From contig CAZYCQ010000006.1 of NCBI GenBank assembly GCA_964645535.1, forward strand, positions 27,137 to 91,136: a DNA stretch of 64,000 nucleotides, in the 5' to 3' direction. Below the pieces are notes generated by a model, which was not told the DNA's origin, did not search any database, and saw only the letters and a program-made list of their open reading frames with translations. A program made the translations under genes and the position numbers. The stretch is from an uncultured archaeon (GTDB lineage Archaea; Asgardarchaeota; Heimdallarchaeia; Heimdallarchaeales; Kariarchaeaceae). Below, piece by piece: positions 21,058-28,979 of the stretch (the first letter of the stretch is position 1; every line of letters starts with the position of its first letter).

Positions 21058-21147
21058 GGGCGTGTAGCTCAGCTTGGTAGAGCAGCGGGCTTTTAGGGTG
21101 TATTCAAAGATACCCGAAGGTCGAGGGTTCAAATCCCTCCACGCTCA
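21058..21147 (+). tRNA. tRNA-Lys (anticodon UUU) with a 16-nt intron (21096..21111) at position 37/38
   Basis: Acceptor GGGCGTG/CACGCTC plus A73, D arm GCTC-AGCTTGGTA-GAGC, anticodon loop CTTTTA|A, T arm GAGGG-TTCAAAT-CCCTC. No encoded CCA. Followed by a T-run. Confidence 0.9.
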
Positions 21148-21208: not shown

Positions 21209-21556
21209 ATGGAAGATCGTATTATTCGGGAGCAATTTGAGGAAGTTTTGGATTATTTTCATGGTAATCGTTTTCGTATTTTATCGGATCGAGATGTTGA
21301 CGGTCATCGTACGGTTACGTTATCTAAGTACGGAGCAATATTGGTTTTGGTTTTGGAGGGTAATGTGATAGCTTTTGACACGTATGCAGATTTGAAGGCA
21401 GGCATTTATGAGTTGGGTGAATTGAATACGTTGGTCAGTGTTATGCTTCAGGCGAAGCGTATGTGTTTGGATCGTGGTTTTCGTGAGATGAATACAACGG
21501 AGCGTCTTTATCCTAGGGATCGTCGTGGTTCAGAGACACGGACGTCAGGCTTGTAG
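21209..21556 (+). CDS. hypothetical protein with atypical codon usage
   Basis: 115-aa ORF. Almost all Arg codons are CGN (mainly CGT), and the coding strand is very C-poor and G+T-rich, unlike neighbouring host genes. Confidence 0.5.
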   Translation: MEDRIIREQFEEVLDYFHGNRFRILSDRDVDGHRTVTLSKYGAILVLVLEGNVIAFDTYADLKAGIYELGELNTLVSVMLQAKRMCLDRGFREMNTTERLYPRDRRGSETRTSGL

Positions 21557-21579: not shown

Positions 21580-22887
21580 TTAGTATGCTTTGTATGGTAT
21601 GAGGAATAGTTTGCTTTGGAAGATAAACCAGAATAGGAGTAGTTGGAACATTAGAGTGATGAAGAGTGATGATGCGAAAGCTATTGGATATCTTGATTGA
21701 TTTTTCTTGACGAGTTTTGAGTATCCTATACCTACGAGGAATACATAGATGAAGAACATTAGGAATATTGGCAGAGCGACGAGGAATAGGAATGGGAGTG
21801 TATCTTTTTCTTCGATGGACAGTTCTTCACTGGATGGGTGGAATCCTACAAGTTCTTGGTAGAAAATTCCTGCGAATAGTTGTGCGAATGCTAGTACGAA
21901 TATGGCAATTCCTGCGAGGAGTATAGCGCTATTCATGAAATTTTTGGAGAAATTTCCGGTGACGAGTCCGATGACCAAAGGTTGGAGGATGATATATGAT
22001 AGTAGTACACCGAATATCATGAGGTAGAAGCTGATCCAGAATTGTAAAAATCCAGCATTTGCTTCATTTGCTCGTATTGAGTTGATGCTGAATGTATTAA
22101 AGCTAAGGAAATAGAAGAGTCCTTTTCCATTTACGACGATTGATGTGAAGAATGAGGAGCTGATGAATGCGAGAAATAGGAACCACCACGGGAGTATTTC
22201 AGCGTATGCACCTCTTGTAGGTCGTGTAATGAATTCAGGGATGAACTTGAGCATACTTTTGACTTCTTCTGATTTTGACACGAGGAATGAGGTAATAAAT
22301 CCGGGCACCAGAAGGAAGATTGCATAACTTGCGAGGGTGATGGCGAACTGTGTTGGGCTGATGCTCAGAGCCACAAGGAGGTTATTGGTGATTGAAATAG
22401 CTGGGCTGTTGTTGAGGAAGAACATGGGGAACCAGAATGCGGAGAAGACGATTGCAAGAAGTGCCAAGGTTGTCATGATGAGTTTTGGTTTTTGGGGGAC
22501 GTTATTGTACCATAGTTTTTCTTCGACGACCTCATCAACGATTGGTTCGAAGTCGTCGAGGATTCTTCCATCGATTTGGAGATCTTGGTATTTTTCCCTG
22601 AATCTGGAGATGAATTCATTGAGGAGTTCTTGTGCATCTCCTTCGTCCATTCGTTTATCAAGTGTGAGGACGAACAGGAGGTCGGCCTGTCTTTCCTTGA
22701 AGATGGTTCGGACGTTTTGGAGGTCGAGGTTTTCGATTTTTTCTCCTTCGGTTTCGGCGGTCATGCTGTAGACTGCGCTGATAAGTCCAGCGGTCAAAGA
22801 TACATCAGTCTCGATTTCTTTTTGGCTGAATTGTTTGGAGAAGTATATTTGTCCATAGGTTGTCATGACAAGCAGTGTCTTGATCAT
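21580..22887 (-). CDS. polytopic membrane protein with an N-terminal longin-like domain
   Basis: Start placed at MIKTLLVMTTYGQIYF (ATG 22887). The first ~105 aa follow a beta-beta-alpha-beta-beta-beta-alpha pattern (LLVMTTYGQIYFSKQF / LTAGLISAVYSMTAE / IENLDLQ / RTIFKER / LLFVLTLD / AQELLNEFISRFREKY), followed by about 8 hydrophobic helices. Confidence 0.6.
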   Translation of the reverse strand: MIKTLLVMTTYGQIYFSKQFSQKEIETDVSLTAGLISAVYSMTAETEGEKIENLDLQNVRTIFKERQADLLFVLTLDKRMDEGDAQELLNEFISRFREKYQDLQIDGRILDDFEPIVDEVVEEKLWYNNVPQKPKLIMTTLALLAIVFSAFWFPMFFLNNSPAISITNNLLVALSISPTQFAITLASYAIFLLVPGFITSFLVSKSEEVKSMLKFIPEFITRPTRGAYAEILPWWFLFLAFISSSFFTSIVVNGKGLFYFLSFNTFSINSIRANEANAGFLQFWISFYLMIFGVLLSYIILQPLVIGLVTGNFSKNFMNSAILLAGIAIFVLAFAQLFAGIFYQELVGFHPSSEELSIEEKDTLPFLFLVALPIFLMFFIYVFLVGIGYSKLVKKNQSRYPIAFASSLFITLMFQLLLFWFIFQSKLFLIPYKAY

Positions 22888-23141
22888 TGTCTCGTACCTA
22901 AAGAGACGGCTTTCACATATAAATGGAACGGATTCCTGATTGGAATTTGCAAGAGAATGGAGGTGGAGAAATGTGCAAGATACACCGAAGGGGTTTAAAT
23001 ACCGAATCAAGGTTTAATAATTTCCAAGATCGGTGATGCATTTCGGAATTTTTTTCATAAACCATAATTGTTATAAATATATCCTCGATAATTGGTTTAT
23101 TTCTTGGAAAAATTGATGAATTTTTCCGAGAGGTGAGATAT

Positions 23142-24550: not shown

Positions 24551-24652
24551 ACGTAAGATGTAGATGAATCATATTTTTATATTAAACGTAGATGAATTAT
24601 ATTTCAAACGGATTTACGTGTAGATGAATTACGTCTGTTTGTAGATGAACCG
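24551..24652. repeat. four direct copies of ACGT(N0-6)GTAGATGAA[TC], duplicating the EF-2 gene 3' end
   Basis: GTAGATGAA at 24560, 24588, 24620 and 24641. On the minus strand each is TTCATCTAC (F-I-Y) followed within 2-3 codons by a stop. Confidence 0.6.
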
Positions 24653-26872
24653 TGCCCAAGTGTCGATTGTTGGAACTTCTTCTTTGAGACCGTTTCTCTT
24701 TCTGATGAAGGCGATTTTCTCGTCTCGCAGATGGGGTGGAACTTCCTCGAAGTGGCTGAACTGATATCCAAAGAAACCTCGTCCTGCGGTGGCACCACGG
24801 ATTTCATCAGCCAGTCCCACAGTCTCGGATGTTGGGATGAGACCCTTGATCATGTTGGAACCGCCTGCTTCCTTGATTTCTTGGATGATCCCTCTGTGCT
24901 GTGTCAGAAGGCTGGTAATGGCGCCGACATATTCAGGGGGTGCCTTGATATCGATGGTAAGCATGGGTTCGAGCAATTTGGGACCTGCTGTGAGGTAACA
25001 GAGGTTACATGCAGCGGACACCATTGCCATGATTTCGGTCAATCCCGTGTGAGCCGGATCTGTGTGGACGGTTGCATCGGTCATGACGAAGAGAACGCCC
25101 ATCAGGGGTTCTCCAGCAAGGGTTGCTTTTCTTGTGAATTGCTTCCAGGTGTTGATGACGAATTCCTTGATTCTTTCAAGTCTTTGAACACCTTTGGTGG
25201 ATTCAATGAAGAGATTGGTGTCGGAAGATGCCCAGAATCCTCTGAAGAATTTTTCGTCGAATTCGGGATATTTTTCGGTGTCCATATGTTGTGCCAAGAG
25301 TTTGGCTCTTTCCTTGGTATCCATCATGGTAAGATCCTTTCCTTCCTTGAGGAAGTCGATCATGGACTGTGGCAGGGGATAGAGCTTCATCTGGATTCTG
25401 TTGTGTCCATTGGGTGACTTGGTGGTGAATACCTCGGATTCTTTTGAGATGGTTTCCCTGTGGACAATGACTGGATCAGAAACTTCGATCGGAACCTGTT
25501 CATTGATACGGGTGATAAGGATCTCGATTTGGAGGGGATCAATTCCTTGGAGGGTATATTTCTTGGTTTCGGGATCCATTTCATAGGAGGCAGTTGGGTC
25601 TGCCATGATCCAAGTACTGATGACCTTGCCCAATTTAGCGACATCGGTCTGTTTCTTGGGGAAGATAGACCTTGAAACAACAGGTTCGGCGGCATATGAA
25701 ATGGCTTCGAATCCGGGAATGTTTGTTCCCTCTCTTGTGAAGGATTCACCGGCGGGACAAATGAAGCCGTCTGCTGCGAAGAGGTTTCCGGCAGGGATCT
25801 TTGGAACGGGAAGGATGTCATCAAGTTCCATGACACCAAGTCTTGTGATGTTTGCCTTTTGTCGTCCGTTGATGAGATAGATCTTGTCGGTATCCTTGAG
25901 TGTTCCTGAGAATACACGTCCGATGAGCGTTGGTCTCTTGGTTCTTGGATGGATGAAGATCTTGGTGATCATTCCAAGGAGTGGTCCATTGGGATCACAA
26001 TTCAACAGTGCCTGACCGGCTTCGGATTCAAGGTCACCGGGCCAGATTTTGGGGATCTTGATTTTTTGGGATTCGCGGGGGTTGGGTAGGTGTTGGATAA
26101 CCATTCTGAGAAGGGCGTCATCCAACGGAAGGTTTTTCCTCAACCAAGCCTTGTCATCCTCAGCATACTTCTGGAAAACTGACTGTGGAGTAAGCTTCTT
26201 TTCCTTGAGGATCTCAACAGTGAATGCCCATCCGTCTTTTGCGGAGCCTACAGCAACGGAGTTGTCTTGGAAGGAGACCCTCCAGCTCTTCTTGAATTCT
26301 TTTGGAACGATTGCCTTAATCTTGTTGTTGACTTGTGAGACGATGATGTCCAATCTAGAGAATACATCCTTGGGATCAAGCTTCAGTTCAGAGATCAATC
26401 GGTCTACCTTGTTGATGAAAAGGACTGGTTTACAGAATTCTTCACCGACAGCCAGTTGGATGTTTGTTTCAGTCTGTGTCATCATTCCTTCAAGGGCGTC
26501 TACAAGGATAATTGCACCATCCGAACCACGGAGGGCTCTTGAGACTTCACCCGTGAAGGAAAGGTGACCGGGAGTGTCGTTGATTTGGAAGATGTAGTCA
26601 TTGACCGTTCCGTCTTCTTCTGTGTATTGGTAAGAAAGGATGACAACAGTTGTGAAAATAGTAATTCCTCTTTCCTGTTCTTCCTCGTCTAGGTCAGTCA
26701 TCCTTTTGTCTCCAGCAGTTTCAGCAGACATGAGACCAGCCTTTGCCAGAAGGTAGTCTGCGGTGGTGGACTTCCCATGATCGATATGAGCTGCAATAGA
26801 GAAGATTCTGCGCAGCTCGATGGGATGATTCATGATCATGTTCCTGATTTCTTCGGTGTTCTTTACTTTCAT
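24629..26872 (-). CDS. fusA: translation elongation factor 2 family GTPase (aEF-2) with a non-canonical diphthamide loop
   Basis: G1 AHIDHGKST, G3 DTPGH, G4 NKVD, 747 aa. Strong C-ending codon bias typical of highly expressed genes. The domain IV loop reads DATVHTDPAHTGLTE. Confidence 0.9.
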   Translation of the reverse strand: MKVKNTEEIRNMIMNHPIELRRIFSIAAHIDHGKSTTADYLLAKAGLMSAETAGDKRMTDLDEEEQERGITIFTTVVILSYQYTEEDGTVNDYIFQINDTPGHLSFTGEVSRALRGSDGAIILVDALEGMMTQTETNIQLAVGEEFCKPVLFINKVDRLISELKLDPKDVFSRLDIIVSQVNNKIKAIVPKEFKKSWRVSFQDNSVAVGSAKDGWAFTVEILKEKKLTPQSVFQKYAEDDKAWLRKNLPLDDALLRMVIQHLPNPRESQKIKIPKIWPGDLESEAGQALLNCDPNGPLLGMITKIFIHPRTKRPTLIGRVFSGTLKDTDKIYLINGRQKANITRLGVMELDDILPVPKIPAGNLFAADGFICPAGESFTREGTNIPGFEAISYAAEPVVSRSIFPKKQTDVAKLGKVISTWIMADPTASYEMDPETKKYTLQGIDPLQIEILITRINEQVPIEVSDPVIVHRETISKESEVFTTKSPNGHNRIQMKLYPLPQSMIDFLKEGKDLTMMDTKERAKLLAQHMDTEKYPEFDEKFFRGFWASSDTNLFIESTKGVQRLERIKEFVINTWKQFTRKATLAGEPLMGVLFVMTDATVHTDPAHTGLTEIMAMVSAACNLCYLTAGPKLLEPMLTIDIKAPPEYVGAITSLLTQHRGIIQEIKEAGGSNMIKGLIPTSETVGLADEIRGATAGRGFFGYQFSHFEEVPPHLRDEKIAFIRKRNGLKEEVPTIDTWARFIYKQT

Positions 26873-26972: not shown

Positions 26973-27665
26973 TTAGATCAATGATTTAAGGAATGCTATG
27001 ATCTGTTTCTTTCCAATTTTTGAGGTGCCGTATTCTCTATTTCGGAAGACATAACCGAACTCACAGATTTTTCCATCCTTAGGGAAGACCTTCAGCACAT
27101 CAAAAAGGAATTTGTATCCCGTAAATTCGAGGATTTTGTCATTTTCGGCATATTTTGTGAGAACACTGGTTTTACCTCCGAAGAATCCTGACATGATATC
27201 CTTTGGGATTTGCTTTCTTCTGAGTAATAGGGAGATTTTGCCAAGTGTCTGAGCCCCTACAGAAATCAATTTTCTTGTAAAGGGCCATTCCTCGATATGA
27301 TCTCGTCTGCCGATAATAAGATCCGGATCTTGATCCATGCATGCAATGGCATCCTGAATGGATTCAGGGGGGTGTTGAAAATCTCCATCCATTATGATGA
27401 ACCACTCGGTTTCGGTATGAAGTATGCCATCCCTTATTGAAATTGTCAATCCCTTTACGGGTTCTGATTGTCTATCAAGTAATCTGACATTTGGATATTT
27501 TTTTGATTTTTCTCGAACGATATCCGTTGTCTTGTCCGTTGAGCCATCATCCACCACGACAATGTGTATCCCGGGATAGAGTTCTTGGATTTTGTCTATT
27601 AAGCGACCGATATTTTGTTCCTCATTTAGGGTCGGGACGATTACCGTAATGTTGGAAAATTCCAC
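26973..27665 (-). CDS. family 2 glycosyltransferase (dolichyl-phosphate mannose/glucose synthase-like)
   Basis: ITVIVPTLNEEQNI, VVVDDGSTDKT and MDGDFQHPP. Confidence 0.8.
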   Translation of the reverse strand: MEFSNITVIVPTLNEEQNIGRLIDKIQELYPGIHIVVVDDGSTDKTTDIVREKSKKYPNVRLLDRQSEPVKGLTISIRDGILHTETEWFIIMDGDFQHPPESIQDAIACMDQDPDLIIGRRDHIEEWPFTRKLISVGAQTLGKISLLLRRKQIPKDIMSGFFGGKTSVLTKYAENDKILEFTGYKFLFDVLKVFPKDGKICEFGYVFRNREYGTSKIGKKQIIAFLKSLI

Positions 27666-27848: not shown

Positions 27849-28979
27849 ATGAGTATACTTTTTTGGGCATTCATCATTTCGCATGGGTTGAATGTCATTG
27901 GTTCGATCCTGATTATGATTCCGTTAATCCGTCTTTATTACCGAACAGGAATTTCTCTTGTAAATATCATGATCATGTTGTTTGGGGTATGGGGCATAAC
28001 CAACTTGCTTCTTATCATCCCAAATGTTCTTGAAATTCAGATTTTACCAATAGCACTGGCAAATATTATCGGTTCGGCATTTGCACCTGCGTTATTCCTT
28101 TTGTTTGCGGATAGGTTCGAAGGGAGAGTTTCCCCTCTCAAAACATCGGTAGCCGTCTCAATGATTCTTTTATCCATTTTCGTGGTTATTGTGAGCTTAT
28201 GGACAGGAATACTTGACATTGCAACAGTTGTGCTCATTATTGAATCGGAATCCTTGATCACCATGAGATGGGCAGAGATACCATCTCTTTTTCTTTTTCC
28301 GGGAATTCTTCTTACTGGATATTGGGTCAGGCAGGAGTTGAAGAGCACAGGTGAGCATGCGATTGATGAAAGGCAGATTGAACAGATTAAGTGGATGCAA
28401 CGGGGGAATTCGTTGACATTCTTCATTGGACCGATTTTTGGTGCTATTGGAGTGATACTGGTTTCTTTGGACAATCCGATGGCAGGAACTTGGGCATCGG
28501 AAATAATCGGATACCTGATTGTTTCGGCCGGTGTATTCATCTTTGGGATTAACTATCTGCTATCACCGGAAGTGGCATTCCTTCAACCTCAACGGGTGGA
28601 TACCTTATTGGTTCTTCATGAGACAGGTGTTCCGGTGCTCCGGTATGATTTTCGACCACCAGAGATTGAAGCAGATACAGCATTGGTCAGTGGAGCCATT
28701 ACCGCCATTACTGCAATTATGAATGAGGCGTTCGGAGTGAAATCCATGGTCAGGTCAATTCATTTTGAAGACAAAGAGTTGATGCTCCAATTTGCAGATG
28801 GTCTTGCTTTTGTGCTTATTGCAGACAGAACTTCGATTTTCCTTGAAAGCTCTCTGAAAAGGTTGAAAGAAGAGTTTGAATTAAATTTCATTGAGAAATA
28901 TGATTTTGGAGGTGGGGAAATTCTGGATCAGGCAATATTTTTGCCTGCGATCCTCAAAAGTTTCGGACTGAAAAGTTGA
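27849..28979 (+). CDS. polytopic membrane protein with a C-terminal longin-like domain (paralogous to the domain of 21580..22887)
   Basis: About 7 N-terminal TM helices, then VDTLLVLHETGVPVLRYDF...ALVSGAITAITAIMNEAFG...VRSIHFEDKELMLQFADGLAFVLIADRTS...LKRLKEEFELNFIEKY (about 28596..28976). Confidence 0.6.
   Translation: MSILFWAFIISHGLNVIGSILIMIPLIRLYYRTGISLVNIMIMLFGVWGITNLLLIIPNVLEIQILPIALANIIGSAFAPALFLLFADRFEGRVSPLKTSVAVSMILLSIFVVIVSLWTGILDIATVVLIIESESLITMRWAEIPSLFLFPGILLTGYWVRQELKSTGEHAIDERQIEQIKWMQRGNSLTFFIGPIFGAIGVILVSLDNPMAGTWASEIIGYLIVSAGVFIFGINYLLSPEVAFLQPQRVDTLLVLHETGVPVLRYDFRPPEIEADTALVSGAITAITAIMNEAFGVKSMVRSIHFEDKELMLQFADGLAFVLIADRTSIFLESSLKRLKEEFELNFIEKYDFGGGEILDQAIFLPAILKSFGLKS

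Follow-up and report, generated by a model that had tools for sequence, protein, structure and literature searches.

The longin-7TM gene and its start codon

A gene on the minus strand of contig CAZYCQ010000006.1 (assembly GCA_964645535.1), from an uncultured archaeon of the Kariarchaeaceae (Heimdallarchaeia), encodes a protein for which we consider it highly probable that a single N-terminal longin domain is joined to a domain of membrane helices. The window analysed is the 64,000-nucleotide stretch from position 27,137 to 91,136 of this contig, and coordinates are those of the window unless another locus is named. The protein is referred to below as longin-7TM, after its seven predicted transmembrane (TM) helices. 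The gene and the parts of its product are as follows.

21580..22887, minus strand: longin-7TM coding sequence, 435 amino acids, stop codon at 21580-21582; from the open reading frame (ORF) and its translation
22888..23010, minus strand: 41-codon N-terminal extension with a TTG start, spurious as judged from homolog starts and the TATA-like element inside it
22916..22923, minus strand: TATA-box-like TTTATATG, 29-36 nucleotides upstream of the ATG and within the supposed extension
22513..22887, minus strand: predicted cytoplasmic longin domain, residues 1-125; two strands, a helix, three strands and two helices
21616..22482, minus strand: predicted polytopic membrane domain, residues 136-424; from hydropathy, AlphaFold2 (AF2) and charge pattern
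22213..22224, minus strand: R-P-T-R motif (R222, P223, T224, R225) in the cytoplasmic TM2-TM3 loop; from a 20-sequence alignment and hhalign

The tracked minus-strand ORF spans 21580-23010 (476 amino acids, TTG start), and the form deposited at NCBI (P0001) is this long version. An in-frame ATG at 22887 gives the 435-residue product, which begins MIKTLLVMTTYGQ. Searching 5.8 billion proteins for relatives yielded 12 sequences, the window's own included, and 11 homologs of 426-450 amino acids aligned end to end with the window protein. Ten of these 11 other aligned members start at residues matching MIKT..., P0003 and P0008 being N-terminally shorter; none of the aligned homologs starts upstream of the ATG at 22887, their first residues falling at that ATG or further downstream. 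The element TTTATATG is likely an archaeal promoter element, with TTTATAT or TTTTAAATA at the same spacing at five homologous loci (L001, L005, L007, L008 and L009). The homolog starts and the TATA-like element inside the extension therefore identify the ATG at 22887 as the right start, and they back the view of the first-pass annotation that the 41 additional N-terminal codons are spurious.

A longin fold at the N-terminus

The full-length AF2 model, built on the 12-sequence alignment (predicted local distance difference test, pLDDT, 82; predicted TM-score, pTM, 0.79), was assigned by DSSP the N-terminal strands (E) and helices (H) E2-9, E14-19, H29-47, E53-55, E59-66, E70-77, H82-100 and H111-124. 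This is the beta-beta-alpha-beta-beta-beta-alpha order that had been read from the sequence at first pass, extended by a third longin helix. When the N-terminal domain was compared with the PDB using Foldseek, the first 14 matches were all longin-containing chains (Trs23, AP sigma, Bet5, Mon1-Ccz1 and BLOC-3), with E-values from 3.5e-4, probability 1.00 and target-normalised TM-scores of up to 0.71. The leading group was composed of TRAPP Trs23/Bet5, AP-1/2/3 sigma, Mon1-Ccz1, BLOC-3, VAMP7 and COPI zeta, in line with the likeness to TRAPP, sigma-adaptin and SNARE longins originally proposed. Probability 1.00 was reached for dozens of independent longin structures, and the resemblance of the modelled domain to longins exceeds chance.

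Pfam searches of the full-length protein placed residues 1-117 just below threshold on Fuz_longin_1 (7.8e-5), Clat_adaptor_s (1.4e-4; 18.7 bits vs a cut-off of 22.5) and Intu_longin_1. With residues 1-134 the score for Clat_adaptor_s was 22.6 bits against the same cut-off of 22.5, and that for Fuz_longin_1 was 22.8 bits against 26.1. Among the 12 homologs, Fuz_longin_1 was matched by eight, Intu_longin_1 by seven, Clat_adaptor_s by five and Longin by one, whereas Robl_LC7 had no match in the window protein or in any of the 12. Three relatives retrieved with the longin profile (P0031, P0065 and P0069) scored above the Fuz_longin_1 cut-off.

These data bear on whether the N-terminal domain might instead be a roadblock/LC7 domain, or another alpha/beta sandwich with a superficial likeness to longins. 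The roadblock proteins MglB and LAMTOR do appear in the Foldseek list, likewise at probability 1.00, the Pfam longin matches of the protein lie at or under the gathering thresholds, and the pLDDT of the N-terminal region in the full-length model is moderate. However, MglB and LAMTOR rank below the longins; the first strand begins at residue 2, so that, given the start codon, the defining N-terminal helix of roadblocks has no place before it; the domain ends, as longins do, in two helices after strand 5; and four Pfam longin families find matches where Robl_LC7 finds none, with the three profile relatives above the Fuz_longin_1 cut-off. Neither GAF nor profilin folds, which had been named with roadblock/LC7 as possible alternatives, occurred among the top 50 Foldseek matches. 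We regard this explanation as extremely unlikely.

A longin SNARE of the VAMP7/Sec22/Ykt6 type was also considered and rejected. Just residues 125-135 lie between helix 3 and TM1, leaving no room for a SNARE motif of ~53 residues, and no synaptobrevin/SNARE family of Pfam matched the full-length protein.

A seven-helix membrane domain

The AF2 model contains seven long helices after the longin domain (residues 136-158, 178-205, 234-254, 280-310, 315-348, 364-392 and 397-424), matching the seven hydrophobic peaks of a Kyte-Doolittle scan; a linker of ~10 residues joins the longin domain to TM1. The polytopic nature of the membrane part, announced at first pass with about eight helices, thus stands, with the count corrected to seven by both hydropathy and AF2. 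The modelled domain also has a cytoplasmic pair of amphipathic helices (207-231) and, on the extracellular side, short helices and a beta-hairpin (256-265); a model of this domain by itself had a pLDDT of 91.9 and a pTM of 0.88. Family-wide net loop charges were +1.7, +0.6 and +3.0 for the loops assigned to the cytoplasm and -2.2 for the 349-363 loop. Because of this positive-inside pattern, the predicted topology fits an N-in/C-out arrangement with the longin domain facing the cytoplasm.

The membrane domain found no relatives in the databases searched. Foldseek searches with its model gave no significant match (best PDB E 0.83, best BFVD E 0.64, TM-scores <0.3), and sequence searches of Pfam, NCBIfam and the PDB returned nothing for the membrane part. 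For the whole protein, the same three sources gave longin-type or chance matches alone, and comparison of the profile with PDB sequences gave noise alone (Dad4, TCR and TatB; E > 0.2), so no known family could be assigned. Two candidates suggested by the seven-helix N-in topology, namely a PAQR/CREST-type hydrolase and a 7TMR-DISM receptor, were rejected, as no Pfam match backs either of them and a conserved His/Asp set is absent. As modelled, the membrane fold is without a match in PDB or BFVD.

Distribution and conservation of the family

An exhaustive HMMER profile search of 1.84 billion representative sequences gave 14 matches at E < 1e-30 and, besides fragments, no relatives that consist of the membrane domain only. 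A scan of one genome per GTDB species recovered ten loci, nine labelled Candidatus Heimdallarchaeota and one 'archaeon'; one member of the family is labelled Kariarchaeaceae. The named carriers of the 7TM form are without exception metagenome-assembled genomes (MAGs) of Heimdallarchaeota, and every homolog is annotated as 'hypothetical protein'. The source MAG of P0001 (locus tag D6732_28185) is labelled 'Methanobacteriota archaeon' by NCBI, a label that looks outdated or wrong because every named carrier is a Heimdallarchaeota MAG.

A sister family of ~365 amino acids and five TM helices was found in MAGs labelled Ranarchaeia, Hermodarchaeia and 'Promethearchaeota', so that the phyletic profile, a point left for follow-up by the first-pass annotation, comprises Heimdallarchaeota for the 7TM form and other Asgard MAGs for the 5TM form. 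The two families aligned in hhalign with a probability of 99.6, the RPSR of the sister protein P0027 falling on the RPTR motif of the window family. In the 5TM proteins the longin domain leads straight into the amphipathic segment and exactly TM1 and TM2 are absent; by the alignment, the 7TM version thus differs by the insertion of a hairpin of two helices after the longin domain and before the predicted cytoplasmic amphipathic segment. An insertion of two helices keeps the topology and therefore lends independent support to the N-in model. The predicted core of the superfamily is composed of the longin domain, the cytoplasmic amphipathic segment with its R-P-S/T-R motif and five TM helices, and this 5TM core persists in several Asgard classes, with sequences about 20-27% identical.

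When 20 sequences of the 7TM and 5TM subfamilies were aligned together, the invariant positions were G12, F16, D28, L31, G34, L35, A38, I51, F63, D84, F113, W126, P223 and R225, with R222, W298, F349, P373 and Q415 present in at least 90% of the sequences. R-P-S/T-R is the sole motif outside the longin domain that is kept invariant across both subfamilies. Mean conservation was higher for the longin domain (0.75) than for the membrane part (0.44-0.61), and within the 7TM family an invariant block (D28-L56) spans the longin domain's central helix and the strand that follows it. Conserved motifs of the membrane part lie on both of its faces, namely RPTRGxYAEILPWW on the inside and the YGRG hairpin and YQELxGFHP on the outside, with Q415 in TM7.

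The conserved glycine invites comparison with longins of GTPase-activating proteins (GAPs) such as FLCN, NPRL2 and SMCR8/C9orf72, in which case the longin domain would contribute an arginine finger that promotes GTP hydrolysis by an Arf- or Rag-like GTPase at the membrane. A 'GP motif' at the start of strand 2 has been reported for GAP longins (PMC12290439); in our alignment G12, just before strand 2, is invariant in both subfamilies, with a true G-P in the Hermodarchaeia/Promethearchaeota clade of the 5TM family, and in most members the loop that follows strand 5 has a basic residue (R79 of DKRMD). In the window protein and every 7TM member, however, the motif reads G-Q, G-T or G-S rather than G-P, position 79 is S in P0007 and L in P0012, the longin domain has no invariant arginine, and the NPRL2 and folliculin longin families were not reported by Pfam. 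A GAP-type mechanism is unlikely for the longin-7TM protein, and we give it very little weight.

Relatives of the longin domain in other contexts

The longin profile of this family retrieved about 55 other proteins with varied C-terminal parts. P0060 carries a small GTPase (Roc/Arf/Ras, residues 128-279) as its C-terminal half, and further proteins have the same longin subtype fused to helix-turn-helix (HTH, TrmB-like), TRASH, leucine-rich repeat (LRR), CARF-Csm6 HEPN and coiled-coil parts. One of them, P0064 (565 amino acids), has the same longin-like domain at the N-terminus of Card1-type CARF and Csm6 HEPN nuclease domains; here a longin would be linked with a CRISPR-ancillary effector. In another group (P0039, P0067 and P0089; ~700 amino acids), some 550 residues of charged, coiled-coil-like sequence come after the same longin-like domain at the N-terminus, and Pfam matches of P0039 were weak (Longin 0.0067, V-SNARE 0.9); these are possible candidates for SNARE-like or tether-like proteins.

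A second ORF of the window also combines hydrophobic helices with a longin-like domain.

27849-28979, plus strand: 376-amino-acid ORF with ~6-7 N-terminal hydrophobic/TM helices; no Pfam match

Its C-terminal domain of ~110 residues is 34% identical to the longin domain over 119 amino acids in blastp and aligned with the longin profile in hhalign (probability 72%, E 3.4e-5, 100 columns). Besides its own copy, 11 homologs of the same length and architecture were found. Within 6 kb there thus seem to be two membrane-attached longin-like domains, the domain order of one protein being the reverse of the other's.

A putative membrane-fixed longin platform

Our preferred reading, held tentatively and at somewhat less than even confidence, is that longin-7TM provides a small GTPase, or the regulators of one, with a longin platform fixed in the membrane, and that its membrane domain possibly gives input. 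The membrane domain would keep the longin domain on the inner side of the cell membrane, where the latter would offer a small Ras-superfamily GTPase, or other regulators of longin/roadblock type, a platform for docking or regulation. The longin domain would probably dimerise via its central helix and the following edge strand, a surface proposed because these two elements are the most invariant. GTPases dock on that same surface in longin/roadblock complexes. Roadblock proteins, whose fold is related to that of longins, dimerise via the central-helix region (PMC10933270). Because conserved motifs occupy both faces of the membrane domain, it is probably more than an anchor and might, for example, sense or transport something that modulates the platform. 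A GTPase link is favoured because P0060 combines the same longin subtype with a small GTPase; Arf- or Rag-like GTPases joined to Asgard longins are on record (PMC4917890, PMC10933270), and the MAGs that carry the 7TM family are rich in small GTPases.

Several observations weigh against this platform reading. The longin subtype is also found on HTH, TRASH, LRR and CARF-HEPN domains and may be a general interaction or sensor module that is not GTPase-specific, and the longin part of the full-length model is moderately confident, with mean pLDDT values of 48-82 in blocks of ten residues. Nor did all-against-all clustering of the ORFs at 14 loci yield an operon partner conserved family-wide. The first-pass annotation had suggested a search for adjacent or co-occurring small GTPases; no small GTPase gene adjoins the longin-7TM gene, and the 64-kb window contains none. 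At L001/L006, L004/L014, L010, L011 and L012 such genes are found at a distance of 2-6 kb, and the encoded proteins are 29-42% identical to one another; they are therefore not orthologous, and a neighbouring GTPase was rejected as a conserved partner. Genes of this kind are in any case abundant in these genomes. The genomic context neither favours nor rules against a GTPase link.

The main rival reading makes the protein a transporter, channel or membrane enzyme, with the seven-helix domain as its functional unit and the longin domain as a cytoplasmic module for autoregulation, dimerisation or ligand sensing, in the manner of PAS/GAF-like domains and with no GTPase involved. We hold this to be possible, though doubtful. 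Conserved polar and proline residues within the helices and conserved loops on both faces would suit such a function; the compact and very confident AF2 model of the membrane part suggests a specific fold over a generic anchor; and both the fusions of the longin subtype to CARF-Csm6 HEPN, TrmB-like HTH, TRASH and LRR and the want of a conserved GTPase neighbour are readily accommodated. The membrane domain nonetheless bears no likeness to any such family in Pfam, NCBIfam, PDB or BFVD, and the strongest constraint is on the longin domain, not on the membrane domain. One candidate enzymatic partner was encountered in two other loci.

8040-8684 of L011 and 3118-3765 of L012, plus strand: CDP-alcohol phosphatidyltransferase gene, ~150 bp downstream of the longin-7TM homolog and on the same strand as it

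This gene lies directly downstream of the longin-7TM homolog and would speak for a membrane enzyme or transporter, but the adjacency is limited to two nearly identical genomes (target proteins 91% identical), with a more distant copy in L010, and we rejected the phosphatidyltransferase as a partner. In L011 and L012 it is followed by genes for an HTH protein and a Ras-like GTPase.

A further possibility is that the helices do no more than tether a longin scaffold that would pair with another, soluble longin or roadblock protein, a tethering role like that of lipidated LAMTOR1 for Ragulator. As a rule, longin and roadblock domains function as homo- or heterodimers (PMC10933270), the region proposed as dimer interface is invariant and many soluble longins are encoded in these genomes. 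An anchor, however, would need far less than seven helices, conserved loops, an extracellular beta-hairpin and an invariant cytoplasmic RPxR motif, and the persistence of the 5TM core fold across Asgard classes at such low identity also argues against passive tethering, which we deem unlikely.

A bolder form of the membrane-fixed platform, which we consider rather unlikely, would be an Asgard-specific receptor-like class in which a polytopic sensing or transport domain is wired to a longin platform that regulates GTPases. If so, small GTPases would gain a fixed membrane address and an input signal in organisms in which prenyl or fatty-acyl anchoring machinery for them is reported to be missing (Lokiarchaeum; PMC4917890, Table 1), and the arrangement would be a prokaryotic forerunner of the logic of G-protein-coupled receptors with their G proteins and of SLC38A9-Ragulator-Rag. 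The 5TM core of several Asgard classes and the second family, 5 kb away in the window and with swapped domain order, would then make membrane-integral longins a recurrent Asgard invention.

Comparison with known longin systems

Longins are abundant in Asgard archaea: 41 longin-like domains were counted in Lokiarchaeum (PMC4917890), and 130 asCOGs belong to the Roadblock/longin superfamily, with most architectures absent from eukaryotes (bioRxiv 10.1101/2020.10.19.343400). Asgard longin fusions to many domains are well documented (PMC4917890, PMC10933270, bioRxiv 10.1101/2020.10.19.343400), the known types being the asCOGs 'Longin' and 'NPRL2-like longin' and the longin-GTPase, longin-TRAPPC3 and longin-Vps28C fusions (PMC4917890, PMC10933270, PMC11188069, bioRxiv 10.1101/2020.10.19.343400). 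The longin-7TM and 5TM proteins share with these the fold, the phylum and the lineage-specific domain shuffling, but differ in that their partner is a polytopic membrane domain without detectable relatives. No description of an archaeal longin fused to a polytopic membrane domain was found in the literature searched, the full asCOG tables lying outside that search, and a prior listing of the longin-7TM family as an uncharacterised asCOG is possible. The first-pass statement that this is not a described family accordingly stands inasmuch as neither a description nor a characterised prokaryotic match was found; longin fusion as such is not new, other Asgard examples being already known.

The best structural matches, 2j3t_D, 2j3t_C, 7b6d_C, 6owt_S and 9ddt_B, represent TRAPP Trs23/TRAPPC4 and Bet5/TRAPPC1 and the sigma/zeta subunits of AP/COPI (E 3.5e-4 to 2.4e-3, target-normalised TM-score 0.48-0.71, identity 11-20%). 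These longins act as GTPase-facing platforms at membranes but are, unlike longin-7TM, small soluble subunits of multi-protein complexes without a membrane domain. Likeness to the tri-longin Rab guanine nucleotide exchange factors (Mon1-Ccz1, Fuz-Intu and HPS1-HPS4/BLOC-3) is apparent from Fuz_longin_1 and Intu_longin_1, the commonest Pfam matches, and from Mon1-Ccz1 and BLOC-3 in the Foldseek results; those proteins, however, are heterodimers with three tandem longins, whereas longin-7TM has one longin followed by TM helices.

The longin SNAREs (VAMP7, Sec22b), the phytolongins and SEC22A/SEC22C resemble longin-7TM in having an N-terminal cytoplasmic longin covalently joined to a membrane-spanning part, and the VAMP7 longin (4afi) was among the Foldseek matches. 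SEC22A/C have several predicted transmembrane helices. Membrane-bound longins that are not SNAREs exist in eukaryotes (phytolongins and SEC22A/C; PMC2779197). By contrast, longin-7TM is without a SNARE motif and has seven helices with a specific conserved predicted fold rather than a tail anchor, and no sequence relationship was detected between its membrane part and those of the eukaryotic membrane longins.

A functional analogy, and that alone, can be drawn to Ragulator-Rag-SLC38A9 and to MglA-MglB, in which an alpha/beta-sandwich platform at the membrane docks a small GTPase and, in the case of SLC38A9, is coupled to a polytopic transporter. The Ragulator and MglB platforms are roadblocks on separate polypeptides, anchored by lipidation or basic patches, whereas the putative platform of longin-7TM is a longin and shares one polypeptide with the membrane helices.

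Small GTPases and regulators of the longin/roadblock type are numerous in Asgard archaea, and Heimdallarchaeia are often placed closest to eukaryotes. How such proteins meet the membrane has been approached from genomes and by heterologous expression: CAAX motifs, prenyltransferases and fatty-acid transferases are listed as not found in Lokiarchaeum (PMC4917890, Table 1), and GFP fusions of Asgard GTPases, roadblock proteins and TRAPPC3 were not seen at membranes in HeLa cells (PMC10933270). A longin domain within a conserved polytopic protein is a concrete candidate for a membrane-resident GTPase platform in Heimdallarchaeia. The family also defines a predicted membrane fold without a solved analogue and offers a short list of conserved residues for mutagenesis (G12, D28-A38, R222-P223-R225 and Q415). 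Should the longin domain here be unrelated to GTPases, the fold would be a general regulatory module on membrane proteins, an outcome that would temper trafficking-centred readings of Asgard longin counts.

Other features of the locus

In the window, the neighbours of the longin-7TM gene are the genes for MoeA, a tRNA, a 115-amino-acid ORF, an S8 subtilase, an elongation factor 2 (EF-2) paralog and a family 2 glycosyltransferase (GT2). Synteny at clade level, within the close clade, extends to the MoeA gene, the EF-2 paralog, the GT2 glycosyltransferase and the 115-amino-acid ORF, and other loci have PTH2, geranylgeranyl-reductase-like and molybdenum-cofactor genes nearby.

21058-21147, plus strand: tRNA of 90 nucleotides between the MoeA and longin-7TM genes (Rfam, 59.7 bits; ARAGORN gave no tRNA in the window)
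21209-21556, plus strand: 115-amino-acid ORF, convergent with the longin-7TM gene and 24 bp from its stop; no Pfam match
24629-26872, minus strand: EF-2/EF-G family protein of 747 amino acids with all five domains

The tRNA is probably an intron-containing archaeal tRNA. Orthologs of the 115-amino-acid ORF are placed beside or near the longin-7TM gene in L005, L007 and L001/L006, and the ORF is therefore a real conserved gene. The EF-2/EF-G gene is likewise syntenic with the longin-7TM gene in L001/L006, L005 and L007, and its 747-residue product may be one of the Heimdallarchaeia EF-2 paralogs.

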